Shown: piece after piece, positions 23,935 to 48,041 of the stretch
Numbering within the stretch: the first letter of the stretch is position 1
Layout: each line of letters starts with the position of its first letter
Assembly: GCA_965261005.1 (NCBI GenBank)
Contig: OZ253375.1
Location: 1,920,001-1,984,000, forward strand
Direction: 5' to 3'
Length of the DNA stretch: 64,000 bases
Origin: Deinococcus sp.
Lineage (GTDB): Bacteria > Deinococcota > Deinococci > Deinococcales > Deinococcaceae
Translations under genes and position numbers: made by a program
The notes under the pieces: generated by a model
Told to the model about the DNA's origin: nothing
Seen by the model: the letters and a program-made list of their open reading frames with translations, nothing else
Database searches by the model: none

Positions 23935-23940
23935 TTGGAT

Positions 23941-24001
23941 TTGACTTCCGCTGCATACCGCGCTATCTTGAATCTATCAGCGGCCGAAAGGCCGCTTTTT
24001 T
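23941..24001 (+). repeat. 61-bp promoter/terminator unit R1
   Basis: TTGACT-17-TATCTT...AGCGGCC-GAAA-GGCCGCTTTTT. Confidence 0.9.
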
Positions 24002-24091
24002 GTCGCTCTTGTCGTTGCCCCATGTGCCGCGTCCCAACCCCCTTTGGCGCCCGGCACACCACGCCGGCCTCTTCCCGGCGTTCTATAAACC

Positions 24092-24814
24092 ATGATTCCC
24101 GAGCGCGAAAATGATCTGCGCCCGCCCGGCGAGGACAAGGGCCTGTGGCGCGAGACGCTGGAGGCGGGCGCCAGGCTGCTTCAGTCGGCGGCGCCCCTCA
24201 GGGGCTTCGACATCTACGTGGTGGGCTTTCACTGCGCGCGGCAGCGCCCAGAGGAGCAGATGGAGGCGCACCACTACTGCAAGCAGGTGAACGCGGACTT
24301 CTTGCAGTGCGCCATCTTCGACGGCAACACCGAGGGCGCCAACCTGATCGGGGTGGAGTACATCGTCAGCGGGCGCCTGTTCGAATCCCTGCCCGAGGGG
24401 GAAAAGGCGTCATGGCACCCACACAACTACGAGGTGCTGGGCGGCAGCTTGACCGCGCCGGGCTTGCCGGTGATGGCCGAGCAGGCGCTGATGCGGCTGC
24501 TGATCAACAGCTACGGCAAGACCTGGCACCTGTGGCACACCGGGCGCCACGACGGTCAGGGCAGGCCCGCCGACCCCCTGCCGCTGGGAGACGCGACGCT
24601 GATGTGGTCCTTCAACCGCCACGGCGAGGCGGACGCGAGCCTGGTGCAGAGCCGCGCGGCGGCCATGGGGGTGGACGAGGCGCAAAAGGAGCGTGAGCGG
24701 GCGCACCTGGCCGCCCTCGCCGGGCCGCAACAGGGCGTGGACCTGCTGCGCGGCGCCTTTCCGAACACCGACGGCCGGCCGGGGGGCGTTCGGGATATTC
24801 GAGACACGGAATGA
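24092..24814 (+). CDS. DUF1264/OBAP-family protein
   Basis: GFHCA..P..QMEAHHYC, QCAIFD...ANLIGVEYIVS, WHPHNYEV, YGKTWHLW. Confidence 0.85.
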   Translation: MIPERENDLRPPGEDKGLWRETLEAGARLLQSAAPLRGFDIYVVGFHCARQRPEEQMEAHHYCKQVNADFLQCAIFDGNTEGANLIGVEYIVSGRLFESLPEGEKASWHPHNYEVLGGSLTAPGLPVMAEQALMRLLINSYGKTWHLWHTGRHDGQGRPADPLPLGDATLMWSFNRHGEADASLVQSRAAAMGVDEAQKERERAHLAALAGPQQGVDLLRGAFPNTDGRPGGVRDIRDTE

Positions 24815-24820
24815 TTGCAG

Positions 24821-24881
24821 TTGACTTCCGCTGTATACCGCGCTACACTTTAGAAATCAGCGGCCGAAATGGGCCGCTTTT
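24821..24881 (+). repeat. 61-bp promoter/terminator unit R2
   Basis: TTGACT-17-TACACT-TTAGAAATCAGCGGCC...GGCCGCTTTT. Confidence 0.9.
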
Positions 24882-24902
24882 CTCTTGCCTCCAAAGGTGG
24901 GC

Positions 24903-25490
24903 CTACTCGAAGCCGCGCTCCAGAAACCTCTGCACGTTGGCGGGACTGGGAGCGCCCAGGAACTCGGCCAGGGTCTCTAGCGGGACGCCGCGCTCGTGAA
25001 GATTCTTGGCGCACGACCAGCGCAAGTCGGCGACGGTGAACTCGGTGCCGGCCAGCTCGCGCGTTTCCCGGCTGACCTTGCGGACCACGTGGTTCACCTG
25101 TTCCGGCGTGATGGGCGCCTGTTCGCCGGGGCGGCGGGGCAGCAGCGGGTCGCCGGGCTGGCGCGGGGCGTTGCGGTCGTGGCGCAGGTACGCTTTCAGC
25201 GCCCGCGCGAGGTCGGGGTGCAAGTCCACCTCGTCCCACCCGTCTGCCGTGCCCTGGCGCAGCACCCGCAGGGTTTCTCCCGGCAAATCGAGGTCGCCGG
25301 CTCTCAGGGCGCTCACCTGCCGGGGGCGCAACCCCTGAAGGCCCAGCAAGCCGATCACCAACCCGTCGCGCCGTGGGCCGCAGGCGTGCATAATCTCCAG
25401 AATTTGCGGCTCTTGCAGCCGGTTCCGTTGGGATGGATTGGGCTGGACCGACTTGGGCTGGACCGAGTTGGGTTGGGCCGGGTTCGGCAT
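24903..25490 (-). CDS. Stand-alone tyrosine-recombinase catalytic-domain homolog with a degenerate active site
   Basis: AGGAGG RBS; box I GLRPRQVSALRAGDLD; box II VADLRWS...LGAPS..NVQRF, where H-x-x-R, LGH and Tyr are expected. Confidence 0.8.
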   Translation of the reverse strand: MPNPAQPNSVQPKSVQPNPSQRNRLQEPQILEIMHACGPRRDGLVIGLLGLQGLRPRQVSALRAGDLDLPGETLRVLRQGTADGWDEVDLHPDLARALKAYLRHDRNAPRQPGDPLLPRRPGEQAPITPEQVNHVVRKVSRETRELAGTEFTVADLRWSCAKNLHERGVPLETLAEFLGAPSPANVQRFLERGFE

Positions 25491-25549
25491 GGGGCCTCCT
25501 GTTGGCCTCCAGTCTGCCATCCCTGAGAACTCGCGTCCAACGGATACGT

Positions 25550-25610
25550 TTGACTTTCCGTGCATACCGCGCTACACTTTAGAAATCAGCGGCCACTTGG
25601 GCCGCTTTTT
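25550..25610 (+). repeat. 61-bp promoter/terminator unit R3
   Basis: TTGACT-17-TACACT-TTAGAAATCAGCGGCCACTTGGGCCGCTTTTT. Confidence 0.9.
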
Positions 25611-25648
25611 CGTTGAACTTGGTTCGTTGAGATGATGTGCCGGCCCGC

Positions 25649-27478
25649 CTACTTCACCACGGGCTGCTTGACGACCTGTTTCGCGCCCTTCTGGGTCCAG
25701 CCGACCAGCCAGCCGAGGGTGGACGGGTAGCTGACGTTGCCGTTCCAGACGTAGTTGACCAAGCCGCGCCGGGTGATCAGCAGCTCGCGGCGCAGGTACA
25801 GCGGAATCGAGGGCAACTCGCTGGCGAACTGTTCTTGCATGCCCGCGAAGATGGCGCGCCGCTTTGCCGGGTCGGTTTCCGAGCGCGCCTGGCTCCACAG
25901 CTTATCGTAGGTCGCGTTGCACCAGCCACCCACGTTGTTGCCGGCGTAGCCGTTGGCGGCGCTGGGCACGTTGTCGTTTTTCTGCGGGGTGGCCGGGTCG
26001 TCGCAGTAAAACTCGTTGCCGCCTTCCAAGAGCGGCACCCCGCCGCCGGCCGCCTCGAACAGGCCGGTCCAAGACCCCTCGGAGGTGTGCGGAAAGTAGT
26101 CCTGCGCGAACACCACCGAGGCGGGCGCGTTGTTGATCTTCACGCCGATGCCGACCTTTTGCAAATTGTCCTTGATGAAGAGTTGGTTGCGCTCGCGCAC
26201 CGCGTTGCCGGCGGTGGTGACGTACTCCAGCACGAACTTGACGGTGCGGCCGTTCACGCTGCGCTGCAAGACGCCGTCCGCGCCCGGTTTCCAGCCCAGC
26301 GCCGCCAGCAGTTGGCGCGCCTTGGCGGGATTGTAGGCGTAGGCATCCGCCATCACCGGCGAGTAGGCCGGCGAGTTGGGGTTCACGAAGGTGTTGACCA
26401 CCCTGACCGTGCCGCCCAGTAAGTCCTCGGCGATGCTCTTGCGGTCGATGGCGTACAGCAGCGCTTGGCGGGTCCTGGGGTCGTTCAGCTGGAGGTCGCT
26501 GACGGCCTGCACATTCCCGAACTTGTTGACGATCAAGTTCTCGAAGGCGGTGCCCTCCAGCAGCGACACGCTGTAGACGTTCTTCGCGTTGTCGCGCAGC
26601 AGCTTGAGGGTGGCGGGCGAGTTGGCGAGGCCAATGCTGGAGGTCGCGTCAACCTGCCCGGCCAGCAGGGCGGTTTGCAGGGTGTTGGTGTTGCCGATAA
26701 AGCGGTAGACGACGCGCTGCACGCCGTTCGGGTTCTTTTGCCAGTAGGTCGGGTTGCGGACCATGCTCAGGCTTTGGCCGGGGGTCCAGCGCTCGAAGCG
26801 GAAGGGGCCGCTCACGACCGGCGGGCCACCTTGGCTGGTGGCGACGGGGGCGCCCAACAGTTCCTTTTGGACGATGTCCTGCTGCTGCGCGGGGGTCTTG
26901 CCGGACAAGTCGGCCTTGACCCGCGTCCACAGCGGCCCCCACACCTGCGCGGGCAAGTTGGCGACGCCGTCGGGCCGCACGCCCTTTTGATAGAAGATGT
27001 TGATGGGCGCGTAGGTCACCTCGAAGTTCTTGGCGTCGGTGACCTTGAAATCTGTGGGAAAGTTGGCGCGCGACAAGACCGGCACCCGCTTGTCGCCGGC
27101 GATCTCGTAGAACAGGCGAAAGTCCTCGCTGGTGATGGGCCGCCCGTCGCTCCAGGTGATGTCTGGCTTGAGGGTCCAGCGCACCGTCATGGAGGTGGGG
27201 AAGCCGCTCGCGTCGCGAACGATCTTGACCCGGCCGTTGGCCTCGCTGGGCAGCTCGGCGGCCATGTCGGGATGGTACTTGCCGCCGAGGTCGAGATAGG
27301 TCAGGTCGCGGTACATCCAGCCCATCACCTCGCGGGTGACGCTCTGGCTGTTGACCAGGTATTCCAGCGCCGAAGGCTCCTGGCTGGCGCCGATGGTCAG
27401 CGAGTTGTCGCTCGGTCCCGCGTGCGCGGAAAAGCCGCAGGCGAGCAAAAGGGTCAGGCTGATGGCTGCTCTTTTCAT
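25649..27478 (-). CDS. Peptide/nickel ABC transporter substrate-binding protein (family 5)
   Basis: Signal peptide; LKPDITWSDGRPITSED, SGPFRF, RQALLYAIDR. Confidence 0.9.
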   Translation of the reverse strand: MKRAAISLTLLLACGFSAHAGPSDNSLTIGASQEPSALEYLVNSQSVTREVMGWMYRDLTYLDLGGKYHPDMAAELPSEANGRVKIVRDASGFPTSMTVRWTLKPDITWSDGRPITSEDFRLFYEIAGDKRVPVLSRANFPTDFKVTDAKNFEVTYAPINIFYQKGVRPDGVANLPAQVWGPLWTRVKADLSGKTPAQQQDIVQKELLGAPVATSQGGPPVVSGPFRFERWTPGQSLSMVRNPTYWQKNPNGVQRVVYRFIGNTNTLQTALLAGQVDATSSIGLANSPATLKLLRDNAKNVYSVSLLEGTAFENLIVNKFGNVQAVSDLQLNDPRTRQALLYAIDRKSIAEDLLGGTVRVVNTFVNPNSPAYSPVMADAYAYNPAKARQLLAALGWKPGADGVLQRSVNGRTVKFVLEYVTTAGNAVRERNQLFIKDNLQKVGIGVKINNAPASVVFAQDYFPHTSEGSWTGLFEAAGGGVPLLEGGNEFYCDDPATPQKNDNVPSAANGYAGNNVGGWCNATYDKLWSQARSETDPAKRRAIFAGMQEQFASELPSIPLYLRRELLITRRGLVNYVWNGNVSYPSTLGWLVGWTQKGAKQVVKQPVVK

Positions 27479-27641
27479 GTCTCCTCCGCGGGGCAGGATA
27501 CCCAAGCGCCCGGGGCCGAAGCGCGCGTTTTGCTGCTATTAAAAAATCCCCAAAGCTTTCCGGAGAACACATAAACTTGGCGTGATGAGCCGTCCGTTTT
27601 CCTTACAGTGCCCCGGTTTTCGGCCTGCTATAAGGGCCGGG

Positions 27642-28829
27642 ATGTTGATCTACACGCTCAGGCGCGTCCTCGCGATGGTGCCGATTCTGCTGGTGGTCTC
27701 GCTGCTGGTCTTCGCGTTGATTCAGCTTCAGCCCGGCGACTTCGTGGACGAGCTGCGGCTCAGCAACCCCAACGTCACCGCCCAGGAGGTACGTGACCTG
27801 CGCCGCGCCTACGGCCTCGACTTGCCGTGGTACGTGCAGTACGGCAAGTGGCTCGGCCGCGCGGTGCAGGGGGACTTCGGCATCTCCAGAAAGCAGTACG
27901 TGCCGGCCGCCCAATTCGTGGTGGAGCAGCGCCTCGGCAACACCCTCTGGCTGGGCGCGAGCGCCTTTGTGGTGTCGCTGCTGATCGGCTTGCCGCTGGG
28001 CATTCTCTCGGCGGTGCGGCAATACAGCCTGCTCGACTACCTGACCACCTTTTTCGCCTTTGTGGGCTTTTCCCTACCGGTCTTTTGGTTCGGCCTGATG
28101 CTCTTGATCGTCTTCAGCGTGAATTTCAAGGTGCTGCCGGCGGGCGGTCTGTCCAGCACCGGGGCCAGCCCGCTGGTTGCCACGGCGGCCACCTTCGACG
28201 CGACCGGCCCGGTGAAGGCCGTGCGGACAAAGGACGGCCGCACGGTCGTCACGGTGGAGGTCTACGACGCGGCGGCGGCGCGGGCGCGGGACCGCGCCTA
28301 CACCCTGCCCCCCGGCGCCAGCAGCGCTGTGCGCGCCGGCGACTACGTGTCGGCCGGCCAGCCGCTCGGGCGCCGCGCGACCTTGGGCAGCTGGCTCAGT
28401 TACGCCCTCGATAGGGCGCGCTACCTGGTGCTGCCCACCCTGGCCCTCTCGGTGATTCAGATCGCCACTTGGACGCGCTTTATGCGCGCCTCGCTGCTGG
28501 AGGTCATCCCCCAGGACTTCGTGCGCACCGCGCGGGCCAAAGGCGTGCCCCGGCGGCGGGTCATCTCCAAGCACGCCCTCAGAAACGCGCTGATCCCGGT
28601 GCTGACCTTGATCGGCTTGTCGCTGCCGGGGCTGGTGAACGGCGCCGTCATCACCGAGACGGTCTTCAATTACCCTGGCATGGGCCTCGCGCTCTACCAA
28701 AGCATTCTCGACAAGGACTACAACCCGGCCATGGTGATCCTGCTGCTGCTGGCCCTGATCACCCTGCTGGCCAACTTGCTGACCGACCTCGCCTACGCCC
28801 TGTTCGATCCCCGGATTCGCTACAGCTGA
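27642..28829 (+). CDS. Peptide ABC transporter permease (OppB/DppB-like) with an inserted extracytoplasmic domain
   Basis: YGLDLPWYVQYGKWL, DFVRTARAKG EAA loop, DPRIRY. Confidence 0.9.
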   Translation: MLIYTLRRVLAMVPILLVVSLLVFALIQLQPGDFVDELRLSNPNVTAQEVRDLRRAYGLDLPWYVQYGKWLGRAVQGDFGISRKQYVPAAQFVVEQRLGNTLWLGASAFVVSLLIGLPLGILSAVRQYSLLDYLTTFFAFVGFSLPVFWFGLMLLIVFSVNFKVLPAGGLSSTGASPLVATAATFDATGPVKAVRTKDGRTVVTVEVYDAAAARARDRAYTLPPGASSAVRAGDYVSAGQPLGRRATLGSWLSYALDRARYLVLPTLALSVIQIATWTRFMRASLLEVIPQDFVRTARAKGVPRRRVISKHALRNALIPVLTLIGLSLPGLVNGAVITETVFNYPGMGLALYQSILDKDYNPAMVILLLLALITLLANLLTDLAYALFDPRIRYS

Positions 28830-30013
28830 TGGCCGTCAAGACGCCCGCCCGCCCGGCGACCTCGCGGAACAGCTCGACGGCGGCGCTGGTCCTGCGCCGC
28901 TTTCTGCGGCACCGGCTGGCGGCGGCGGGCCTCATCACGCTGCTCCTGCTGGTGCTGCTGTCCGTCTTCGCGCCGCTGATCGCCCCCTACGCCCCGGCGC
29001 GCATCGACGCCGGCAACGTGTACGCCGCGCCCAGCGCGCGGCACCTGATGGGCACCGACGCCTTGGGGCGCGACATCTTCAGCCGCCTTTTGTACGCCGG
29101 TCGGGTCAGTTTGACGGTCGGCCTGACGGTGGCCCTGCTGTCCGCCCTGATCGGCGCCGGGCTGGGCCTGATCGCCGGCTTTTACAGCGGCCGGCCGCTG
29201 CTGCTGGCGGTGGGGCCGGGTTCGCCCCGGTGGGCGGCGGCGCGCCAAGCGGAGGGGCGCGGCTTTTGGGTCAAAAACGTGCTGCGCTGGCTGTTCTGGG
29301 GGGCGGCGGCGCTGTTCGCGCTGCGCGTCGGCGCCCAATTCGCCGCCAGCGTGGACGGCGCTTACCAAATGCTCAGCTGGGCGCTGGGCGGCCTCGCGGC
29401 GGCGCTGATCGTATGGGGCGCCTTTTTCAGGTCCATTCGGGTGGATGTGGACTCGCTGATCTCGCGCGCCATCGACATTCTGCTGGCGATTCCCTCGCTG
29501 CCCTTTTTGCTGATTCTGGCCGGCTTGTTCGCCAACCCGGGCGTCGGCGTCGGCCCGGCGCTCGACCGGCTGCTCGGCCCGGCGCGCTCGGTGGCCGTGA
29601 TCGTCTTCGTGCTGACGCTGTTCGGCTGGCTGGCGATGGCCCGCATCGTGCGCGGAACGGTGCTGGGTTTGCGCGCGGCGGAGTTCGGCGAGGCGGCCGT
29701 CGGCCTCGGGGCCAGCGACGCCCGCGTGATGCTGCGCCACCTGCTGCCCAACGCCGTCGCGCCGATATTCGTGCAGCTGACCCTCGACCTCGGGCACGCC
29801 ATCGTGGCCGAGGCCGCGCTGAGTTTTTTGGGCCTGGGCATTCAGGAACCGACGCCCAGCTGGGGCAACATGCTCACGGGCGCCCAGGAAGCCATCTTTC
29901 AGCAGCCCACCGCCGTGTTCTGGCCGGGCCTGTTTATCCTGCTGACCACCTTGTCGGTCAACTACCTGGGGGACGGCCTGCGCGACGCCATTGACCCGCG
30001 CAGCCGGCTGTAA
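28829..30013 (+). CDS. Peptide ABC transporter permease (OppC/DppC-like) with extra TM insertion
   Basis: [52 protein letters not shown]. Confidence 0.9.
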
Positions 30014-30084
30014 CGGAGAGTCAAGCCAGCGTCGCGCTTTGGGCCAGCGCACGGACGCCTGCCCGTCTTCGCTATCCTGAACCC

Positions 30085-30854
30085 GTGTACGCGCCGCCGC
30101 CCGGCTTTTTGCGCCTGCGCCTCGCGGCGCAGTGGGACGGCCGGGACTTCGTGGGCTGGCAAAGTCAGGCGCGCGGGCGCAGCGTGCAGGACACCCTCCA
30201 CGGGGCGCTGCTGGAATTTATGGAGGCCGCCCGCCCGGTGGCGGCGGGGCGCACCGACGCGGGGGTGCACGCGCTGCGAATGCCGCTGCATGTGGACGTG
30301 AAAGAGGGCAGCTTGAAGCCGCCGCTGGGCCGGCTGAACCGCGCCCTGAACGGCGTTCTGTCGCCCGACCTGGCGATTCTGAGCGCCGAAGCGGCCCCGC
30401 CCGGCTTTCACGCCCGCTTCTCGTGTTCCTCGCGCTCCTATCTGTACCGGATTCTGCGCAGCGAGGTCCGCTTTCCTTTAGAAGAGAACCGGGCGCTGCG
30501 CGTCGCCGGGCCGCTAGACGTGGGGGCCATGCGGAAGGCCGCCGCAGGATTGATCGGCCGCCACGACTTCGCCGCCTTCGCCACCCGTGAGGAGCGCCAA
30601 ACCGTGCGCGAGCTGTTCTGGCTGGAATTGCGCGAGGTTGGCCCCATTCTGGAGCTTCACCTGAGCGGCGAGAGCTTTCTGCGCCACATGGTCCGCGCCG
30701 TCGTCGGCACGCTGCTACTGGTGGGCGCGGGCAAGCTGGGGCCGGAAGAGGTGGCGGTCATTCTGGCGGCCGGGCAGCGTGAACGGGCCGGGGCCAACGT
30801 CCCCGCGCACGGGCTGTACTTCGCGGGGGCGGGCTACGGCGATACACTGCCCCG

Positions 30855-30858
<4 letters not shown>
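30085..30858 (+). CDS. truA: tRNA pseudouridine(38-40) synthase
   Basis: [22 protein letters not shown]. Confidence 0.93.
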
Positions 30859-32489
<1,631 letters not shown>

Positions 32490-32535
32490 AAAGAAGCCCA
32501 CTTCCCCTCTCACCCCCATCCGCTAGCATTCCCCC

Positions 32536-36417: not shown

Positions 36418-36445
36418 TCCTACCAGACCCGTATGATTCGGAAAC

Positions 36446-37534: not shown

Positions 37535-37587
37535 GGCGGCACATCCCATCAAGCAGATTTTTTGCCGGCCGGCTACCCTTGAGGGGC

Positions 37588-39243: not shown

Positions 39244-39339
39244 GCCGTCTCCTTCTCTGGTTAAATATTAATCAGTGAACTAAACTTGTCAACCTCGGCC
39301 CTGAATTGATCGCGCCTACCCAGTCAGGCAGACGCCGCG

Positions 39340-39618
39340 CCGCCCGGCTACCTACGCAGCGAGGAGATGCTGGCCCACAAGGGCCTGACCGAGGCCAACT
39401 GGCGCGAGGACAGCGACCCCAACTTTCAGGAATCGGAAACGCCGCACTTGGTCGGCCGCGCCGTAGCGCAGCTGGCCGCCGACCCGGGGAGACACCGCTG
39501 GAACGGGCGGGCGCTGGCGTCCTGGACGCTGATGGACGCCTACGGCTTCGCGGACGTGGACGGGCGGCGGCCTCACTGGGGCAGTTGGTTCGAGCGTCTT
39601 GAAGCCGAGCAAAGTTGA
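39340..39618 (+). pseudogene. C-terminal remnant of an SDR oxidoreductase
   Basis: PGYLRSEEML...SETPHLVGRAVAQLAADP...YGFADVDGRRP; N-terminal Rossmann part absent. Confidence 0.65.
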
Positions 39619-39660
39619 CGAGGGCGCCGAGCAAACTCTGTGCGCCCAGATCGAGCTGTT

Positions 39661-39700
39661 CACCCCTCCTTCCTTGAGGGGGAGGGGCCGGGGGTGGGGG
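39661..39700 (-). repeat. REP-like CCCTC...GAGGG hairpin repeat
   Basis: Related to 40813-40852 and 48346-48450. Confidence 0.6.
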
Positions 39701-39818
39701 GTCCCACCGCCAAACCAACGCGCCTCATTCCCACCCAACATCCGGCCCGAATTCTCCAATAGCGTGGGGGACAGCCAGGCGAAGACATGGGCGGGTGGTG
39801 ATAGGCGCTCATCCCCGC

Positions 39819-39850
39819 CTTGACATTTTCTTGACACGGCCGGGTAGACT
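39819..39850 (+). promoter_or_regulatory. Pho-box-like direct repeats and -10 element upstream of phnD
   Basis: CTTGACA twice with an 11-bp period; TAGACT 8 bp before the ATG. Confidence 0.55.
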
Positions 39851-39858
39851 GGCGCGGT

Positions 39859-40737
39859 ATGAAAAAGCACTCTCTCGTGGCCCTCGCCCTGCTGGCGGGC
39901 CTGTCCACCGCCGCCGCCGCGCCCATCAAGGTGCGCATCGGCTACAACCCCACCCAGAATTCCGACCAATTGAACGCCGCCGCCAAGGCTATCGCCAACT
40001 ACATCGAGGACAAGTTCCAGGGCACGGTGGCGGTGGAGACCTTTATTCCCACCGACTACCGCGGCCTGATCGAGGCGATGCGCGCCGGCAAGCTCGACTT
40101 CGCCTTTTTCCCGCCCGACGGCTACGTGCTGGCCCACCAAGACGCGGGCGCCGACGTGCTCCTGAAGAGCGTCCGCAACGGCGGCCCGTACTACTGGTCG
40201 GCCATCGTGGTCCGCAAGGACAGCGGCATCAACAGCCTGTCTGACCTTGAGGGCAAGAGCATGGCCTGGATTGACCCCAACAGCGCCTCGGGCTACACCT
40301 TTCCGCGCGCCGCCATCGTGGGAAAGGGCATCAACCCCGACAAGTTCTTCAGCAAGCAGGTCTACGCCGGCAAGCACGACGCGGCCGTCTTGTCGGTCTT
40401 CAACAAGTCGGTGGACGCCACCGCGACCTTTGCCAACGACGACCAAAACAAGTCCGGCTCTTGGACGCAGTTCCTCAAGCCCGACCAGGCCGCCCAACTC
40501 AAGGCGATCTTTTACACCAAGCCGATTCCCGGCGACACCTTCGCCGTCGCGCCGCAGTTCGAGAAGAAGTACCCGGCCCTGACCAAGGGCATCACCGCCG
40601 CCATGAAGAGCATCAAGGCGCCGCAAAGCGACCTCCTCAAGAACCTCTACACCATCGACTCCATGGTGTCCGCCAAGGACGCCGATTACAACGTGGTGCG
40701 CGACACCCGCAAGGTGCTGGGGCTGGACAACAAGTAG
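39859..40737 (+). CDS. phnD: Phosphonate/phosphite ABC substrate-binding protein
   Basis: DYRGLIEAMRAGKLD, DPNSASGY.FP, GKHDA. Confidence 0.88.
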   Translation: MKKHSLVALALLAGLSTAAAAPIKVRIGYNPTQNSDQLNAAAKAIANYIEDKFQGTVAVETFIPTDYRGLIEAMRAGKLDFAFFPPDGYVLAHQDAGADVLLKSVRNGGPYYWSAIVVRKDSGINSLSDLEGKSMAWIDPNSASGYTFPRAAIVGKGINPDKFFSKQVYAGKHDAAVLSVFNKSVDATATFANDDQNKSGSWTQFLKPDQAAQLKAIFYTKPIPGDTFAVAPQFEKKYPALTKGITAAMKSIKAPQSDLLKNLYTIDSMVSAKDADYNVVRDTRKVLGLDNK

Positions 40738-40812
40738 ATTTCGTACTCGCTCTGCCCCCGGTTCGTCCGGGGGCTTTATCGTGGGGAATGTTGGTCAAGG
40801 TCGCTGGCGGGA

Positions 40813-40852
40813 CCCCTCACCCCCAACCCCTCTCCCGCAGGGGGAGAGGGGA
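40813..40852 (+). repeat. REP-like CCCTCACCCCCAACCCCTCTCCC...GGGAGAGGGG repeat
   Basis: Intergenic palindrome. Confidence 0.65.
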
Positions 40853-40883
40853 GCAAAACAAGAATCTTTCGCCGTGAGGACGC

Positions 40884-41633
40884 ATGATTGAAGTCAAGAA
40901 CCTGGAGAAACGCTTTCCGGACGGCACGCTCGCCTTGTCCAACGTCAACGTCCGTATTCCCGACGGCGACTTCGTGGCGGTGATCGGGCTGTCGGGGGCG
41001 GGCAAGTCCACCTTTTTGCGCTGCCTGAACCGCTTGGTGGACCCCAGCAGCGGCTCAATTACGGTGAACGGGCAGGACGTGGCCCATTTGCGCGGCGCGG
41101 CCATTCAGCGGTACCGCCGCACGGTCGGCTTCGTGTTTCAGCAGTTCAACTTGGTCACGCGCCTGAGCGTACTGGAAAACGTGCTGCACGGCCGGCTGGG
41201 CTACCACGGCACGCTGCGCGGCATGCTGGGCCTGTATCCCCAAGAGGACTACGCCATCGCCCGCGACGCCATCCGCTTGGTCGGCCTTCAGGAAAAGGAG
41301 AACACCCGCGTCAGCAGCCTGTCGGGCGGGCAGCAGCAGCGGGTCGCCATCGCCCGCGCGATGGCCCAGCGCCCGCAGCTGATGCTGGCCGACGAGCCGA
41401 TGGCCAGCCTCGACCCGCGCTTGTCGGACGTGATCCTGGGCATCCTGCGCGAGTACAACCAGGAGCGCGGCGTGACGGTCCTGATCAACATTCACGTCCT
41501 GGAACACGCCCGGCGCTACTGCAAGAGATTCCTCGCCTTTAACAAGGGCGAGCTGATCGCCGACGGCCCGATCGAGGACCTGACGCCGGAACTCGAAGAG
41601 AAGGTCTACGCCGGAAATTTGGAGACCTTGTGA
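40884..41633 (+). CDS. phnC: Phosphonate ABC ATPase
   Basis: GLSGAGKSTFLRCLNRL, LSGGQQQRVAIARA, ADEPMASLDP. Confidence 0.9.
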   Translation: MIEVKNLEKRFPDGTLALSNVNVRIPDGDFVAVIGLSGAGKSTFLRCLNRLVDPSSGSITVNGQDVAHLRGAAIQRYRRTVGFVFQQFNLVTRLSVLENVLHGRLGYHGTLRGMLGLYPQEDYAIARDAIRLVGLQEKENTRVSSLSGGQQQRVAIARAMAQRPQLMLADEPMASLDPRLSDVILGILREYNQERGVTVLINIHVLEHARRYCKRFLAFNKGELIADGPIEDLTPELEEKVYAGNLETL

Positions 41634-43276
41634 TTGTTCTGTTGCTGTACGCCCTGGGCGGCGCCCTGGTCGCCTACCTCGGCTCGCTGGCGCGCGGCAG
41701 CTTGCGGCGCCTGAGCGTCGCGGGGGCGCTGGCCGTGCTGATCGCCGCGCTGACGTTGCCCCTCAGCGCGGGGGCGGGGCTGCGCTCCAGCGATTCGGTG
41801 GACGCCACGGTGCTGGGGTTGCTGCCGGTCTTTCCCGCCTTCGCCCTGGTGCTGGCCGCGCCGGTGGTGGCCCTGCTCGCGCTGCGGCGGGGCGGCCGGG
41901 TGGGCGGTCTGGTCAGCTTGGTCGCCGGCGCCGCCGCGCTGCTGACGCTGACCCTGTGGGTGACGCGCCCGCCGAGCCTGGGCCAACTGCTGCCGGTGCC
42001 CGGCGTGATGGAGATTTTGGTGGGCCTGGCCGTCTTCGCCTTCGTGCAGGTGTTCACGCTGTCGAGCAAGCCGCTGCGGCTGGGCGGCCTGATTCTGGGG
42101 GCGGTGCTGGGGATAGCGGCCAGCGTCTCCCTGCTGTCGCCGGGGGGACGGGCCATCTTTCCGAACACGGCGGGCTATTACCAGCTGATCACGCCGACCA
42201 CGGCCGCGCAGAATACAGCGCTGATCGAGACCTACAACGGAAATTTGGCGGGCCTGAACGAGATTCGCCAGGAGGCCGGGCTGGCCCAGCTCGCCCCCAT
42301 CCGCTCGGTCGAGGACCTGACCGAGCAGGGCTTGCCGCAGGCCATCGCCGAGCGCGGGTTCCGGGCGCTGCGCCCGGCCCAAACGCGCTACGGGGCGCCG
42401 CTGCTCTTCTTCATGGGCGGCCTGCTGCTGACGGCTGGCGCCCTTCAGGCGCGCTTTCCGGGGCTGCAGGAGGCCGGCGATTGGCTGACGGGCGGCGTGA
42501 TCGCGCTCACGCTGAACTTGCTGGTGCCGTCCTTTTACGCGACCAACTTCAACCTCGGCGAGTTGGCGCGCGGGGCGCCCTTTTTGCGCGACTTCGCTTC
42601 CCGCTCGTGGCCGCCCCTGCTCACGCGCGTCAACCCCGACAACCCAAGTGCCAACATCTACCCCCTGCAAGAGGTCCTGAGCCAGATGGCCCTGACCATC
42701 GAGATCGCTCTAGTCGGCACCTTTCTGGCAGCCCTCTTCGCGGTGCCGCTCTCGTTTCTGGCGGCGCGCAACCTGACCGCGCGCAGCCCCTTGATGCGCT
42801 TCTTTTACGGCGTCACGCGCACCTTTTTCAACGTGGACCGCGGCGTGGACACCCTGATCCTGGCGCTGATCTTCGTGGCCGCCGTGGGCTTGGGGCCGTT
42901 CGCGGGCGTGCTGGCGATGGCGATTCACTCGGTCGCCGACCTCGGCAAGCTCTACTCCGAGGCCATCGAGAACGTGGACAGGGGGCCTATCGAGGCGCTG
43001 GAGTCGGTGGGCACCTCGGGCACCAACGTGCTGCGCTGGGCCATTCTGCCGCAGGTCTTGCCGCTCTTCACCTCCTACACGCTCTACCGCTTCGAGATCA
43101 ACTTCCGGGTCTCCATCGTGCTGGGTTTCGTGGGTGCGGGCGGCATCGGCTTTTTCATTCAGGGGGCGATGGCCGCCGGCAACTACAACCAGATGATCAT
43201 CGGCGTGATCGCCATTGTGCTGGTCGTGAACCTGATTGACTTTTTGTCCAGCGAGGTGCGCCGCCGGTTGATCTGA
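41630..43276 (+). CDS. phnE: Phosphonate ABC permease with a long N-terminal membrane extension
   Basis: GLGPFAGVLA, GKLYSEAIE, LYRFEINFR.S.VLG.VGAGGIG. Confidence 0.87.
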   Translation: MIVLLLYALGGALVAYLGSLARGSLRRLSVAGALAVLIAALTLPLSAGAGLRSSDSVDATVLGLLPVFPAFALVLAAPVVALLALRRGGRVGGLVSLVAGAAALLTLTLWVTRPPSLGQLLPVPGVMEILVGLAVFAFVQVFTLSSKPLRLGGLILGAVLGIAASVSLLSPGGRAIFPNTAGYYQLITPTTAAQNTALIETYNGNLAGLNEIRQEAGLAQLAPIRSVEDLTEQGLPQAIAERGFRALRPAQTRYGAPLLFFMGGLLLTAGALQARFPGLQEAGDWLTGGVIALTLNLLVPSFYATNFNLGELARGAPFLRDFASRSWPPLLTRVNPDNPSANIYPLQEVLSQMALTIEIALVGTFLAALFAVPLSFLAARNLTARSPLMRFFYGVTRTFFNVDRGVDTLILALIFVAAVGLGPFAGVLAMAIHSVADLGKLYSEAIENVDRGPIEALESVGTSGTNVLRWAILPQVLPLFTSYTLYRFEINFRVSIVLGFVGAGGIGFFIQGAMAAGNYNQMIIGVIAIVLVVNLIDFLSSEVRRRLI

Positions 43277-43292
43277 GGCTTATGCCCCTGGT

Positions 43293-44585
43293 ATGAGCAT
43301 GTCTCGTGAGGCCCGCGCCATCGCGGTGCAGCCCCAGTGGCGGGTGTCCGACTACCGCACGGAGGCCAGCTTTCGCGCCTGGCTGCGCGGCCAGCTGGAG
43401 ACCGCGAGGCCGCACCTCTCGCCGGACAAACCCAACTTGGTGGTCCTCACCGAACTCAACGGGCTGCCGCTGCTGCTGCGCGGGGCATTCTTCGCGGCGC
43501 GGGCACCGAGTTTTCAAGCGGCCCTGGCCCTGCTGCTGCTGCGCCATTTGCCGGCGGCCATCTGGCTGGCGCGGCGCGAGCGGGTGGGCCTGGCGCGCGG
43601 GCTGCTGCTGGCCCTGGCGCCGGACACGGCGCGGGTGTACCTCGCGGCCTGCCGCGACCTGGCGCGCGAGTACGGCGTGTACCTGGTTTGCGGCAGCGCG
43701 CCGCTGCCCCATTTTGAAGAGCGTGCTGGGCGGTTGGTGATTTCCGGCGGCGCGGTATACAACGGGGCCGTCATCCTCGGGCCGGACGGCCAGCTGATCG
43801 GCGTCGCCGACAAGGTCTACCTCACCCCGGACGAGGGGCCGGGGGCACTCGATTTGTCAGAGGGAAAGTTAACCGACCTGCGGGTTTTCCCGACCCCCGT
43901 GGGCGACCTCGGCGTGGCGACCAGCCTGGACGCCTTCAAAAGCGACCTGATCGCACACCTGGACAACTTGGGAACCACCGTGCTGCTGCAACCCGACGCC
44001 AACGGGGCGGTGTGGACCGACCTGGAGCAGCTGCCCGCGCCGGGAACCGCCACGCCGCGCGACCAGCCCCTCGCGTGGCTGGACAGTTCCTGGGCCGCCG
44101 TGCAGCGCGCCCGCAACATCCGCTACGCCGTCAACCCGATGGTGGTCGGTAACCTGTTCGACGTCGCCTTCGACGGCCAAAGCGCCATCGTGGCGCGGGC
44201 GGGTGAGGCAGAAGAAAAGCGAAGCTACGTGCTGACCGAGCCGCGCGGGGGCTTTCTGGCGCTGGCCCCCTGGGTCGCCGAGGGGCCGCCGGAGCAGCTG
44301 CGCCAAGTTGGCCGCGAATTGGCACCCGGCTCGGGAAGCGGGCGTGAAAACCGCTACCGCAGCGAGGTTTTGGCGGCCGACTTGCGCCTGCCGGCCAGCC
44401 CGGCGCAGAAGCTTCCGCCGCGCCCACACGAAAGAGCTTTGCAAGCTTTTTTATCCGGCAAGGCGACGCTTCGGGCAGAGCCTGGCGTTCGCACGCTGAA
44501 CGTGCTGTGGCCCGCCGTCTGGATTGGCGCGGTGTTGTACGGCTTGGGGCTGCTTTTTTACCGTCATAGTCAAAAGTTGCAGTGA
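43293..44585 (+). CDS. Carbon-nitrogen hydrolase (nitrilase-fold) family protein
   Basis: VVLTE, ADKVYL, ATSLDAF (Ser at the usual Cys position). Confidence 0.72.
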   Translation: MSMSREARAIAVQPQWRVSDYRTEASFRAWLRGQLETARPHLSPDKPNLVVLTELNGLPLLLRGAFFAARAPSFQAALALLLLRHLPAAIWLARRERVGLARGLLLALAPDTARVYLAACRDLAREYGVYLVCGSAPLPHFEERAGRLVISGGAVYNGAVILGPDGQLIGVADKVYLTPDEGPGALDLSEGKLTDLRVFPTPVGDLGVATSLDAFKSDLIAHLDNLGTTVLLQPDANGAVWTDLEQLPAPGTATPRDQPLAWLDSSWAAVQRARNIRYAVNPMVVGNLFDVAFDGQSAIVARAGEAEEKRSYVLTEPRGGFLALAPWVAEGPPEQLRQVGRELAPGSGSGRENRYRSEVLAADLRLPASPAQKLPPRPHERALQAFLSGKATLRAEPGVRTLNVLWPAVWIGAVLYGLGLLFYRHSQKLQ

Positions 44586-44661
44586 CGCGGCGGTACAAGT
44601 GGGGGGTAGGAGGGCAGGAAGGGCCTCCGGCCCGGCGAGGACAGCGCGAAATCTAAGCCTG

Positions 44662-44820
44662 ATACGGATTTCGGAAACTCGGTCAACGAAGTTGACGGAC
44701 TTTCCAGTGGAGCGGAGAGGAAAAGGATACGGGTTTCGCGGTTTGGAGCAACATCGTGGCGGCCGTCTTGCCGAGCCTTGGCGCTGTTAAGGGTGTTGAG
44801 GAAATAAGCGGAATCCGTGT
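44662..44820 (-). repeat. Full copy of the SRE/SNR-like intergenic repeat
   Basis: ATACGGATTTCG...CGGAATCCGTGT ends; internal GTCAAC-GAA-GTTGAC hairpin. Confidence 0.8.
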
Positions 44821-44876
44821 TAGCAAGGTCATCCTGAGCGTGGCCGAGCGGGTGAAGAAAGAGTTGAGCCGCCGTC

Positions 44877-45188
44877 ATGTCCACGCCCGCCGGGTTTTTC
44901 TACACTCTAAGTGTGCGTCAGGACATCGAGACCACTTGGATGGAAGACCTCAGCGCCCGGCAGCGCGAGCGGCTGCGCTGGCTGCGCGACCACAAGTGCC
45001 GCTTCGAGGCTGCCCGGGTCTTGGCGGCGCCCCAAGGCGACCGGCCGGAGACGTTTCTATTGGAAGTCTTTCTCGACAACTACGCGGTGGTGCGCGAGCG
45101 CGGCGAGGATGTGGCCGAGGTGTTTGACCGCGCCGTCGGGCAGATGGGGGCGCTGCTCCGGTTTGAGACCGACGGGAACGTGGAATAG
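44877..45188 (+). CDS. Small hypothetical protein, paralog of the next gene (start may be GTG at ~44912)
   Basis: W.EDLS..Q..RLRWLRDHKC..EA. Confidence 0.7.
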   Translation: MSTPAGFFYTLSVRQDIETTWMEDLSARQRERLRWLRDHKCRFEAARVLAAPQGDRPETFLLEVFLDNYAVVRERGEDVAEVFDRAVGQMGALLRFETDGNVE

Positions 45189-45194
45189 TCGGGC

Positions 45195-45473
45195 ATGCCC
45201 TCTGATATTGCCCAAATTTGGACCGACGCCCTCAGCGAGGCGCAACTGCGCCAGCTTCAGTGGCTGCGCGACCGCAAGTGCTTGGTCGAGGCGCAGCTGG
45301 CCCCGGCCGACCCGCTGCGCGACCAGCCCGAGGAGGTCATGCTCGAAGTCGTGGTGGACAAGCACGCCATCGTCAAGATTCGCGGCGGCGACATCCCCGA
45401 GATGTTCGACAAGGCGTTCATGGCAGCGCAGAACCTCTTCAATTACGTCAACCAGCGCGAGGACCGGCTGTAG
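45195..45473 (+). CDS. Small hypothetical protein, tandem paralog
   Basis: W.DALSEAQLRQLQWLRDRKC.VEA. Confidence 0.75.
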   Translation: MPSDIAQIWTDALSEAQLRQLQWLRDRKCLVEAQLAPADPLRDQPEEVMLEVVVDKHAIVKIRGGDIPEMFDKAFMAAQNLFNYVNQREDRL

Positions 45474-45486
45474 CCGCGAACCAAAA

Positions 45487-45564
45487 GCAAAACCCGTATC
45501 TTGTTCCCATCCGCTCCGCTGGAAACTCAGTCAACGAAGTTGACTGAGTTTCCAAAATCCGTAT
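45487..45564 (+). repeat. Partial SRE/SNR-like repeat containing an empty IS110 target
   Basis: AAAACCCGTATCTTGTTCCCATCCGCTCCGCT...AATCCGTAT. Confidence 0.8.
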
Positions 45565-46379
45565 CAGCCCTGCCGAATGTTCCCGAGGCGGGCCGCCAGC
45601 CAGGCCGCCGCCTCGTCCACGGCCGCCGGGGGCAGGGCGTGGCCGGCGTCCCACCAGCGCAGCTCCCTCGGTTCCCCCGCCGCGTCGAAGAGCCGCTGGG
45701 CCTGCTCGGGGCGGATCACCGGGTCGTGCCGGCCATTCACCATCAGCAGTGGGCGGCCGTTCAGCCGCTTCACGGCGCGCGGCGGGTCCACCACCGCTCT
45801 CGCCACCCGCGTCAGCGGCGAGTCGGGCAGGTCGCCCCCGGCCGTCAGGACCACCGGCCCGAGGTCCGGCTCGCTGGCCGCCAGCATCACCGCCAAAAAA
45901 GACCCCAGGGAATAGCCCACCACGCCCACGCGCGCCGGGTCCAGCTCGGGCCGCCCCCGCAGCAAGCGCACGCCCAGGGCCGCCTCACGCAGCGCCAGGC
46001 GCCACAGCCGCACGACCTCCAGCGGGTTGCGGGTGTTCTGAAGGTCCAGCGGGTTGCCGCGCGAGCCGTGCATAGGGAGGTCAATGGCGAGGGACGCCAC
46101 GCCGCGCTTGAGCAGGGCGCGGCCCACCGAGTCCGCCATCACCTCTTTGCGGTTGGAAAAGCCGTGCAGCAGCAGCGCGGCCGGCACAGGATCAGAGGGC
46201 ACGGGACCGGAGGCGTCCGGCAATTGAAGCAGGGCGGGCACGGATAGGCTCTCGGCAGAAAAACTCAGGGCGAGCTGCCGGCCGCCGGGAACAGGCTCCT
46301 CGTGGTGGACGGTCTGGGCGACGCTGGGTACCTGAACAGGGTAAACCGGGCAGAGATAGGCAAATGAAAAAGCGGCCAC
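45564..46379 (-). CDS. Alpha/beta hydrolase (start uncertain)
   Basis: LLHGF, GYSLG, GRHD, AGH catalytic triad. Confidence 0.85.
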   Translation of the reverse strand: MAAFSFAYLCPVYPVQVPSVAQTVHHEEPVPGGRQLALSFSAESLSVPALLQLPDASGPVPSDPVPAALLLHGFSNRKEVMADSVGRALLKRGVASLAIDLPMHGSRGNPLDLQNTRNPLEVVRLWRLALREAALGVRLLRGRPELDPARVGVVGYSLGSFLAVMLAASEPDLGPVVLTAGGDLPDSPLTRVARAVVDPPRAVKRLNGRPLLMVNGRHDPVIRPEQAQRLFDAAGEPRELRWWDAGHALPPAAVDEAAAWLAARLGNIRQG

Positions 46380-46427
46380 TTGGGCCGCTGATTTCTAAAC
46401 GTTAGCACGGTATGCACGGAAAGTCAA
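46367..46427 (-). repeat. 61-bp promoter/terminator unit R4
   Basis: TTGACT-17-TAACGT-TTAGAAATCAGCGGCCCAAGTGGCCGCTTTTT. Confidence 0.9.
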
Positions 46428-46456
46428 ACCTATCCGCCGGATATTCGGCGGCGCGC

Positions 46457-47938
46457 TCAGCCCACCACGTCCCCCACCGCCGCCGCCGGTTCGAGCTTTG
46501 GCTCCAGCGCGGGCGAGACGCCCAGGCGGTTGATGCCGTCGAAGGCGGCCACCTTGTAGCACTCGGCCAAGGTGGGGTAGTTGAAAACCGTGTTCACGAA
46601 GTAGTCCACCGTGCCGCCGAAGGCCATCACCGCCTGGCCGATGTGGACCAGCTCGCTGGCCCCCGTGCCGATGATGTGGACGCCCAGCAGCTCGCGGGTG
46701 TCCAGGTGGAAGATCAGCTTGAGGGTCCCCTGCTCGTCGCCGAGGATCTGGCCGCGCGCAATTTCGCGGTACTGGGCCTTGCCGATCTCGTAGGGGACGC
46801 CCGCCTGGGTCAGCTCCTCCTCGTTCTTGCCGACCGTGCTGATCTCGGGAATGGTGTAGATGCCGTAGGGAAACAGCTCCGGCACGCTCTGCGTTACGAC
46901 GCCAAAGGCGTGGCAGGCCGCCAAGCGCCCCTGCTCCATGCTGACGCTCGCGAGGCTGGGAAAGCCGATCACGTCGCCCACCGCGTAGATCGAGTTCACC
47001 CCGGTCTGGTAATGCTCGTTCACCCCGATGTGGCCGCGCTCGTCGGCGCTCAGGCCGGCGGCCTCCAGATTCAGGCTGCCCACGGCGCCCACCCGGCCCA
47101 CCGCGTACAGCACCAGGTCGCTCACGATCTCCTTGCCGCTCGCCAGCTCCACCCGCACCCGCTCGCCGCTCCCGTCCGGCACCTTTTCAACCGCGCGCAC
47201 CGCCTCGCCCAGGCGCAGCGTCATGCGGTTCTGGCGCAGCTGGTAGGCCAGCACGTCGGTGATCTCGTGGTCCACGAACTCCAGCAGGCGGGCGCGCTTG
47301 TCCACCAGCGTCACCCGCGCGCCCAGGGCGGCGAACATGCTGGCGTACTCGCAGCCGATCACGCCGCCGCCGATCACCGTGACGCTGCGCGGCAGGACAC
47401 GCAAGTCGAGGATGTCGTCGCTGATGATGACCTGCCGCCCGTCGAAGGGAATGCCCGCCCCCCGCGCCGCCTGGGTGCCAGTCGCGATCACCACGAAGCG
47501 CGCCGTCACGTCGCGCCAGCCGTCGCCGCGCACGTCGCGCAGCCGGACGGTATTCGGCCCCATAAAGGACGCCTCGGCGTTCAGACTCTCCACCCCATTG
47601 CGGTGGAGCTGGCTGCGCACCACGTCCAACTCGTGCGCCATCACGCTGCCCGTTCGCAGCAGCAGGTCCTGCACCGTGATGTCCTGCTTGACGCTGTAGG
47701 CCGAGCCGTAGAAGCCGCGCTCGGTGTAGCCGCTCAGGTGCAAGATGGCCTCGCGAAAGGTCTTGGACGGAATGGTCCCGGTGTTGATGCACACGCCGCC
47801 CACCACCGCCCGGCGCTCGACCACCGCCACCTTCTTGCCCAGCTTGGCGGCCTGAATTGCGGCCCGCTGCCCGCCGGGGCCGGACCCGATCACCAGCAGG
47901 TCGTAGGTGTACTCCTCGGGCGAAGCGGGCTGGGTCAT
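46457..47938 (-). CDS. sthA: Soluble (Si-specific) NAD(P)+ transhydrogenase
   Basis: GSGPGGQRAA, GGVCINTGTIPSKT (single Cys), GIYTIPEIS, FNYPTLAECYKVAA. Confidence 0.9.
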   Translation of the reverse strand: MTQPASPEEYTYDLLVIGSGPGGQRAAIQAAKLGKKVAVVERRAVVGGVCINTGTIPSKTFREAILHLSGYTERGFYGSAYSVKQDITVQDLLLRTGSVMAHELDVVRSQLHRNGVESLNAEASFMGPNTVRLRDVRGDGWRDVTARFVVIATGTQAARGAGIPFDGRQVIISDDILDLRVLPRSVTVIGGGVIGCEYASMFAALGARVTLVDKRARLLEFVDHEITDVLAYQLRQNRMTLRLGEAVRAVEKVPDGSGERVRVELASGKEIVSDLVLYAVGRVGAVGSLNLEAAGLSADERGHIGVNEHYQTGVNSIYAVGDVIGFPSLASVSMEQGRLAACHAFGVVTQSVPELFPYGIYTIPEISTVGKNEEELTQAGVPYEIGKAQYREIARGQILGDEQGTLKLIFHLDTRELLGVHIIGTGASELVHIGQAVMAFGGTVDYFVNTVFNYPTLAECYKVAAFDGINRLGVSPALEPKLEPAAAVGDVVG

Positions 47939-47980
47939 ACGTCACCTCGGGAATGGGAGGATGGGGCGCCGGAGGGAATG

Positions 47981-48041
47981 AAAAAGCGGCCTGAGTGGCC
48001 GCTGATTTCTAAAGGATAGCGCGGTATGCAGCGGAAGTCAA
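47981..48041 (-). repeat. 61-bp promoter/terminator unit R5
   Basis: TTGACT-17-TATCCT-TTAGAAATCAGCGGCCACTCAGGCCGCTTTTT. Confidence 0.9.

Follow-up and report, generated by a model that had tools for sequence, protein, structure and literature searches.

Within a 64,000-nucleotide stretch of Deinococcus sp. contig OZ253375.1 (positions 1,920,001 to 1,984,000, assembly GCA_965261005.1; hereafter the window) we identified five copies, R1 to R5, of a unit of ~85 bp in which a promoter-like element is followed at once by a terminator-like hairpin, and our searches of this genome and its relatives lead us to regard the unit as a widespread, undescribed form of transcription punctuation, not a local gene-cassette system. 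We put at about even the chance that the unit is a self-terminating module, which would act as a terminator for the gene upstream of it and as a promoter, off by default, for the genes behind it. Based on the sequence, the promoter and the intrinsic terminator are both very probably functional, because it is precisely the promoter-defining and terminator-defining bases that are conserved.

The five copies had been described in an earlier note on this DNA as 61-bp units, and that reading was accurate in its particulars: TTGACT lies at 23941, 24821 and 25550 on the forward strand and at 46427 and 48041 on the reverse strand, the -10 hexamers are TATCTT, TACACT, TACACT, TAACGT and TATCCT, and both TTAGAAATC and the hairpin, AGCGGCC-loop-GGCCGCT-T4-6, are as given there, the units themselves reaching ~17 nt further upstream of TTGAC. 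A degenerate 23-nt pattern of the -35 and the spacer had exactly five matches in the window, R1 to R5, and none across 100 dinucleotide-preserving shuffles. Consensus scans called a sigma-70-like promoter with a 17-nt spacer at four of the five (0.1-0.2 in shuffles), R4 being missed because its hexamer is TAACGT, and a 7-bp hairpin with six GC pairs followed by a T-run at all five. The units therefore present the features by which each class of signal is recognized, i.e., for a sigma-70/sigma-A promoter a TTGACA-like -35 and a TAnnnT -10 set 16-18 nt apart, and for an intrinsic terminator a GC-rich hairpin running directly into a U-run (free energies of -12.8 to -14.7 kcal/mol at the window units); the succession of promoter-like element and hairpin claimed in the earlier note is borne out both by these calls and by the conservation described below.

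On the forward strand, R1 (23924-24001; 79.2 bits with the covariance model described below) has its upstream box from ~23924, the -35 TTGACT at 23941-46, the spacer box TGCATACCGCGC, the -10 TATCTT at 23964-69, the predicted start ATCA at 23976-79 and the hairpin at 23979-96, with a T-run to 24001. R2 (24804-24881; 74.3 bits) has its -35 at 24821-26, its -10 TACACT at 24844-49 and its hairpin at 24859-78, with a T-run to 24881; it lies 6 nt past the stop of a DUF1264 gene and faces the 3' end of a recombinase-like gene. R3 (25533-25610; 77.4 bits; -35 at 25550-55, -10 TACACT at 25573-78, hairpin at 25588-606, T-run to 25610) faces the 3' end of a gene with a Pfam SBP_bac_5 match at 25649-27505 (reverse strand). 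The two reverse-strand units are R4 (46367-46444; 75.1 bits; -35 at 46427-22, -10 TAACGT at 46404-399, hairpin at 46389-71, T-run to 46367), 29 nt past the stop of sthA and directly before an alpha/beta hydrolase gene, hydrolase B, and R5 (47981-48050; 81.8 bits; -35 at 48041-36, -10 TATCCT at 48018-13, hairpin at 48003-47985, T-run to 47981), which lies 42 nt before the sthA ATG and has its upstream box cut by a 229-bp miniature inverted-repeat transposable element (MITE). The gene neighbours first named for these units, sthA behind R5, a hydrolase behind R4 and DUF1264 behind R1, agree with our profile matches. R2 and R3 do flank a recombinase-like gene, which has a Phage_integrase domain; this gene is on the opposite strand, and therefore both units face the 3' ends of convergent genes.

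In aligned copies from several genomes the unit comprises a (C/T)GCATA-like box, N3, TTGAC, N6, C/G-TGCATACCGCGC, TAT-n-y-T (more generally TAnnnT), N6, ATCA and the hairpin, the 3' part being made up of ATCA, a GC stem of 5-7 bp, a loop of 4-7 nt and a run of 5-8 T residues, often followed by ATTGCC. The TGA seen 6 nt before R1 and R2 is indeed there, but it is part of the unit's own conserved upstream box, YGAWTR-N3-TTGAC, which can be compared with CGAATACAT, TGAATGCAG and CGGTTGCAG in other copies. Across 64 distinct units, TTGAC, TA..T, TGCATACCGCGC, ATCA and the T-run are nearly invariant; variation falls in the N6 that follows the -35, in the inner positions of the -10 and in the 6 nt leading up to ATCA. 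The seeds for these searches were chosen by the -35 and the spacer only; the invariance of the spacer box among the 64 is therefore partly by construction, while the fact that every match also has the -10, ATCA, the hairpin and the T-run is an independent result. Conservation of the spacer, already noted from the window alone, extends far beyond chance and across the phylum, which points to a factor or a polymerase contact at this position. In the sister family described below the promoters carry three direct GCATA repeats, arranged GCATAgcc-TTGAC-GCATAcc-GCATAccgcgg.

Folding each of the 64 units separately gave hairpins of -9 to -15 kcal/mol with varying loops, and in this per-sequence folding the stem showed compensatory changes across genera at position 1 (C-G/G-C) and position 4 (C-G/G-C/U-G/U-A), such that at two covarying stem positions the structure is conserved rather than the sequence, as expected for a terminator. 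The stem is GCGGCC/GGCCGC in this genome and CCGCC/GGCGG in the large genus g8, and elsewhere CCGTCC/GGGCGG or GGACGG, and GCGTCC/GGGCGC. A pair count on the model-fitted alignment gave 73.6% of cells paired and two pairs with double changes, values blurred by a one-column register shift between two stem types; RNAalifold found no structure on a MAFFT alignment, in which the differing loop lengths misalign the 3' arm.

A genome-wide search, proposed in the earlier note as a check, identified 11 copies (nine strict and two diverged) in the two contigs (3.27 Mb) of this genome, with flanking genes that vary between genomes. A covariance model built from 31 units matched 60 of 61 family genomes, 59 of them with 5-27 copies, one with a single weak match, and the remaining genome with none; the idea of a system specific to this locus was therefore not borne out. 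In a phylum sample searched with stricter filters, matches were found in all 33 genomes of family f1 and in 19 of the 31 genomes of a sister family, f4 (1-4 copies each), which appears to be the Thermus/Meiothermus family, and in 0/6 genomes of families f2 and f3. Among the 80 database matches listed for an exact 15-mer, the 18 in named records holding it several times were to Deinococcus species, and the others listed were single chance occurrences in unrelated taxa; the unit also matched two Deinococcus plasmids. Rfam 15 gave no match at the window units (gathering score), at eight unit loci (E-values up to 1) or at ten Thermaceae-like loci (E-values up to 0.01). The unit motif strings were absent from the full-text literature searched, no description of this element was found in the literature on Deinococcus repeats, transcription start sites and small RNAs, and the supplementary tables of PMC4007540 held no sequence strings matching the unit. 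The Deinococcus repeats named SNR are, in PMC4007540 and PMC1978522, reported absent from D. geothermalis, and on that account are not this unit family.

The surroundings of the unit were surveyed with a basic gene caller that relies on the codon usage of this genome, applied to the other genomes as well, together with Pfam searches of selected open reading frames (ORFs), for 45 units (11 from this genome and 34 from 29 loci of other family genomes, a sampling that favoured the best model matches). The gene behind the unit was convergent in 29 cases and co-directional within 300 nt in 14, with neither arrangement in two. Units were over-represented in convergent intergenic regions (19/44 by script, 20/45 with R2 read by eye), where the stop of the convergent gene often abuts the hairpin (gaps of -2 to 23 nt) with no U-run on that gene's own strand. 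In many cases the upstream gene, too, ends close by, its stop being 2-52 nt before the unit or within it. Several sites of the unit are orthologous between species: one to three units stand between rny and a convergent trmK in three genomes (3, 1 and 2 units, respectively), with trmK/macro in a fourth; one unit stands between a WD40 gene and a convergent DUF1501 gene in three genomes, with DUF1501 beside units in a fourth; and further sites are der/ABC ATPase (three genomes), macro/AMP-binding (two genomes) and a unit preceding rlaP (two genomes). The arrangement of macro followed by a unit, seen in genera g1 and g8, is also found in this genome, and this site therefore predates the genera. 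Orthologous units were 77-87% identical between species, against 53-64% for the adjacent 84-nt flank, which suggests selection on units even where no gene follows; the loci were best matches, and the first range is therefore biased upward. Tandem arrays of two or three units, 150-270 bp apart with no gene between them, are common. In one genome (G049, C1, locus L046, 1480-2120) two units ~493 bp apart enclose the gene of a predicted membrane protein (109 aa, no Pfam family), and G054 and G016 each have a pair of units with this spacing; the protein was considered as a candidate regulator and rejected as a small membrane protein.

The units are also concentrated near the replication origin. The dnaA gene lies 5.4 kb past the end of the window, and of the ten units on the chromosome of this genome, seven are no more than ~90 kb away from it. 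When 11 genomes from three genera were taken together, 71 of 121 units were within 200 kb of dnaA against 15.3 expected, and after merging units less than 5 kb apart this was still true of 50 of 90 loci against 11.4 expected, with each genus biased; the nominal binomial P of 4e-22 overstates the clustering because related genomes share synteny. Inspection of this genome showed no orientation bias with respect to replication (four units co-directional, five head-on).

In the sister family the units mostly stand before genes. All six Thermus-like genomes have a single unit directly before rtcB, in the order T-run, Shine-Dalgarno sequence, ATG; three Meiothermus-like genomes have one 9-45 nt in front of an S4/pseudouridine-synthase gene; and the remaining units are found before gatB, uvrA or trpE or after a PIG-L gene. 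By our own count at least 13 of the 16 copies examined stand directly before a co-directional gene. Pfam recognized no family for the gene upstream of the Thermus-like unit, and tblastn found neither rtcB nor rlaP in the Deinococcus genome studied here. We know of no description of how rtcB is controlled outside the proteobacteria. As a separate observation, a conserved, non-coding-looking stretch, CCTCTCCGAACCYYCCAAGGCYCCTTAG, occurs ~30 nt before the rtcB unit in five of the six Thermus-like genomes (L202 and L210-L214, not L214); it is the end of a 267-aa ORF of no Pfam family in L210, and the reading frame differs in L202.

In the mechanism that we propose, the module would consist of a near-consensus sigma-A promoter (TTGAC, 17 nt, TAnnnT) with two or three direct GCATA boxes around and inside it. 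Transcription is predicted to start at the A of ATCA because of the usual 7-nt distance from the -10, and a polymerase starting there would stop by default after ~22-27 nt, yielding a tiny RNA of AUCA, the hairpin and a U tail; a short terminated RNA had been anticipated in the earlier note, and as the expected default product it would measure ~25 nt rather than ~30 nt. A polymerase arriving from the upstream gene would stop at the same hairpin. The genes behind would be held off by default, namely sthA, hydrolase B and DUF1264 here and rtcB in the Thermus-like genomes; all of these would need read-through, and for sthA, hydrolase B, rtcB and the pseudouridine synthase gene a distance of tens of nt, such as the 42 nt from R5 to the sthA ATG, leaves no room for another promoter. 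A conserved protein recognizing the GCATA repeats would presumably determine the output, and control would have to be by protein because no RNA switch fits in the 4 nt before the hairpin. The GCATA repeats across the -35 and the spacer are the only conserved candidate for a factor site, and control by a factor is probable; the protein might be a repressor, an activator or a loader like the antitermination proteins Q and AlpA. From the sequence we infer, in short, that the promoter fires at this start site, that termination follows, and that read-through is regulated by such a factor.

Among known systems, this arrangement resembles a leader attenuator and perhaps a Q/AlpA module, and by the features that could be compared (no operon behind most copies, no phage link) the unit departs from both classes, as it does from integrons and MITEs. 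In leader attenuators (riboswitch, T-box and pyrBI-type) transcripts end in the leader by default, and the genes downstream need read-through. The unit would likewise terminate by default, with the genes behind dependent on read-through; unlike these attenuators it has no sensor, the 4 nt before the hairpin bar an alternative fold, and one and the same leader recurs before many genes that have nothing to do with each other, as well as at the 3' ends of genes.

Several results weigh against a self-terminating module for gene control. Gene control cannot be the role of most Deinococcus-family copies, because 29 of the 45 units face a convergent gene and only 14 have a co-directional gene within 300 nt. 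The clustering around dnaA is not explained by a role in punctuation, and terminators are equally strong before genes and otherwise (T-runs of 6.0 and 6.0; free energies of -11.5 and -10.4). With only 4 nt before the hairpin an RNA-based antiterminator is impossible, and no candidate emerged for a factor that would read the GCATA repeats. Finally, a diverged unit in genome G003 keeps all parts of the unit except the spacer box.

We hold as a tentative alternative that the unit works on its own, with no need of a neighbouring gene. Its product would be a ~25-nt 5'-triphosphate hairpin RNA that acts, for instance, on an RNA-binding or RNA-repair protein, whether as its ligand or as a decoy, or else occupancy by polymerase or by a GCATA-binding factor would itself matter, the unit being an insulator against head-on transcription or a dosage-coupled titration device at some ten origin-proximal sites, and genes behind would use leak-through. 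This would account for the units that face a convergent gene and yet keep intact promoters at orthologous sites, for the gene-free tandem arrays, for the origin clustering, and for the convergent genes that end at the hairpin without a U-run of their own; in addition, ATCA and the first bases of the stem are invariant beyond what pairing needs. Against it, the loop and most of the stem vary, leaving no conserved seed besides AUCA, most sister-family copies stand directly before a co-directional gene, the units of this genome show no orientation bias relative to replication, and the origin clustering may in part reflect shared synteny. Small RNAs from 3' untranslated regions with their own promoter (DapZ/MicL type) are 50-100 nt or more in length, have a conserved seed and share the mRNA's terminator; the unit is similar in that a promoter near a gene end uses the terminator of the upstream mRNA, and differs in that its RNA would be essentially the terminator hairpin alone. 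A fuller version of the idea, which we think rather unlikely, is that the units are origin-proximal micro-transcription units found phylum-wide, selected for firing and stopping or for a ~25-nt triphosphate hairpin RNA and bound by a GCATA-reading factor, that they insulate in both directions, that they may mark or titrate with origin copy number, and that they serve incidentally as expression sockets and insertion hot spots for IS elements and genes of recent acquisition. It is similarly unlikely that the unit is something of its own kind.

Q of lambdoid phages and AlpA of Pseudomonas act in modules that occur once and switch on the late operons of a phage or a pyocin; these modules contain a pause element that depends on sigma, and their terminator is tens to hundreds of nt distant. 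On the model suggested by the earlier note a Q/AlpA-like protein would bind the spacer element, load onto polymerase and confer resistance to the adjacent and later terminators, which we consider improbable for the unit. It shares with these modules a specific DNA element at the promoter core, either inside it or adjoining it, and a close downstream terminator to pass; between the -35 and the -10 there is a conserved element, repeated a short way upstream, the terminator at +5 to +27 is of full strength even where the gene behind has to be expressed, and a switch at the RNA level is impossible. Unlike them it occurs in 5-27 chromosomal copies per genome, its hairpin begins at +4/+5, and there is mostly no operon behind it, such that most copies could read only into the antisense of a convergent gene. 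By our own reading of the folded sequences the first transcribed bases hold no -10-like pause element. A phage late-promoter origin is not indicated, because the unit had no match in 50,697 phage records, and no Q/AlpA-like gene came to light, a search aimed at one not having been made.

That the units are boundaries of single-gene cassettes, exchanged by site-specific recombination or by homologous recombination between the 60-85-bp repeats after natural transformation, is in our view very improbable, although some features of the window lend slight support to this suggestion of the earlier note. Three window genes are bracketed by directly oriented units. The DUF1264/OBAP-family gene between R1 and R2 (24092-24814, forward strand; Pfam PF06884, 2.1e-57) is accessory, being found in 0/40 other family genomes, with best relatives at most 69% identical, the named ones proteobacterial. 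The soluble NAD(P)+ transhydrogenase gene sthA between R5 and R4 (46457-47938, reverse strand; NF003585, 643 bits against a cut-off of 465) is accessory as well, occurring in three of 40 other family genomes; none of these has units, and the homology is confined to the coding region. At the sthA and DUF1264 loci in relatives no units were found, and the same-genus synteny of two window loci was too diverged to define empty sites. The true start of hydrolase B (45564-46379, reverse strand; Pfam Abhydrolase_6/FSH1) is probably downstream of 46379. A diverged unit precedes its ortholog in G003, the succession of unit and hydrolase being kept at 68% DNA identity, which favours use of the unit as a promoter. 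As a separate feature, a perfect palindrome with 14-bp arms (GGAAACTCAGTCAAC TTCG ...) lies at 45521-45553, directly after the hydrolase B stop; it has no T-run and is a terminator-like hairpin separate from the units.

The third bracketed gene is the recombinase-like gene between R2 and R3 (24903-25565, reverse strand; Pfam Phage_integrase, 6.7e-14). Its protein has only the catalytic domain, lacking the N-terminal core-binding domain and beginning with a low-complexity PNPxQP N-terminus. Compared with XerA (4a8e), HxxR is replaced by ADLR and LGH by LGA; reading beyond the printed alignment, the C-terminus RFLERGFE has F at the position expected for the catalytic Tyr, and the protein scored below every curated recombinase cut-off. 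These changes suggest that the protein is probably inactive. The gene is kept at 75-79% DNA identity in two same-genus genomes and is therefore likely to encode a non-catalytic relative, not to be a pseudogene. A link between the units and this protein (24903-25490 in the earlier note) was not borne out, since the catalytic Tyr is apparently absent and none of the three homolog loci (L189, L191 and L193, from the two same-genus genomes) carries a unit. Integron attC sites are sites of recombination that fold and on which an active IntI acts, beside attI and Pc. The units are similar to integron cassettes in that related repeats, all facing one way, enclose individual genes that have often been acquired; unlike these, the repeat is a promoter and terminator, and the neighbouring protein, with its ADLR, LGA and F, looks inactive and is not linked to units elsewhere.

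REARRANGEMENT signals at the units comprised IS4-like/MITE insertions, a 199-bp duplicate and the accessory bracketed genes. The 229-bp MITE at R5 (48051-48279) has 22-bp terminal inverted repeats and a 6-bp duplication, TATTCG, at 48045-50 and 48280-85, and sits 9 nt upstream of the R5 -35 hexamer, 3 nt beyond the target duplication. Its full-length IS4-like parent (C2:229711-231086) encodes a 460-aa DDE_Tnp_1 transposase between 22-bp inverted ends, TTGAAAGCCGGAC.AAA.TCAG, and further cases are at C1:2079407-2079635 and C1:2038316-2038337, one of the four cases being a lone end. At four units in this genome an IS4-like element or MITE is inserted 9 nt upstream of the -35, with a 6-bp duplication at three, including R5, and the same junction of element and unit occurs once each in G019 and in G052, both from another genus; based on this recurrence, the family looks as if it targets this promoter family specifically. 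The 199-bp duplicate of the 3' end of hydrolase B (23723-23921, forward strand) is 100% identical to 45781-45583, inverted, and ends 2-3 nt before the upstream box of R1, creating a short ORF (23557-23934) that resembles the hydrolase C-terminus; it is a recent rearrangement at a unit boundary. The pairs of units at ~493 bp, with a membrane-protein gene between them in G049, also accord with cassettes. However, units elsewhere lie between core genes at conserved sites, and the unit has neither terminal inverted repeats nor target duplications. The proposal that the units serve a redox/stress gene set found no support, as the flanking genes vary, with rny, trmK, der, macro, rtcB and a pseudouridine synthase gene among them.

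Correia elements of Neisseria have terminal inverted repeats and target duplications, number in the hundreds and are restricted to few hosts; the unit shares with them a multi-copy nature, a length below 150 bp, a position at gene ends and a possible role in starting or stopping transcription, and differs in its ~10 copies and its orthologous sites across the phylum. An all-against-all comparison of the 11 copies with 600-nt flanks confined their homology to ~65-100 nt and revealed no terminal inverted repeats or target duplications of the unit itself, the inverted repeats found near copies belonging to separate insertion sequences (IS) or MITEs beside four of them. Least probable of all is a dispersed repeat that is selfish or neutral, like a MITE or a repetitive extragenic palindromic (REP) element, with an incidental or tolerated likeness to promoter and terminator: copies within this genome are more alike than they are to those of other genera (5/11 share TTTAGAAATCAGCGGCC) and enrichment at gene 3' ends is typical of tolerated repeats, but the copy number is low and stable in 59 of the 61 genomes, positions are orthologous across species and genera, as for macro and its unit in g1 and g8, conservation falls on the promoter-defining bases with covariation in the stem, and a single copy is fixed before rtcB in all six Thermus-like genomes. 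Both the cassette and the selfish-repeat readings fit the local rearrangements and not the conserved, low-copy, syntenic pattern.

Other features of the window were recorded beside these. Adjoining the MITE at R5 is a second inverted-repeat element (48296-48481), with 18-nt arms that are 94% complementary and 150 nt apart; some of its sequence is found again upstream of the C1:2079645 unit, and it is possibly another MITE, in which case the site would be a small insertion hot spot. Further along, a PIN-domain gene overlaps an upstream 142-aa ORF by 4 nt (48513-48947 and 48944-49372, both on the reverse strand) in a layout like that of VapBC-type toxin-antitoxin pairs, and a 2667-aa ORF occupies 51977-59980 (reverse strand). 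A c-di-GMP-II-GAG riboswitch aptamer (RF03169; 50.7 bits, where the gathering score is 40) is present at 22779-22866 on the reverse strand, just upstream of an ORF at 22249-22878 on the same strand.

If our reading of the unit as a self-terminating module is true, one standard 85-bp element would end genes and hold others off by default in Deinococcus and its Thermus relatives, including the RNA-repair ligase gene rtcB, and the GCATA repeats would be a new regulon motif that predicts a phylum-wide DNA-binding regulator. The clustering at the origin and the copies without a gene to control go beyond any textbook role and make a case for a local purpose, such as insulation, titration or a tiny RNA. 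We advise that the unit be annotated, lest it be mistaken for gene promoters or small RNA genes. It would also be a natural, portable promoter/terminator part for the engineering of these extremophiles.

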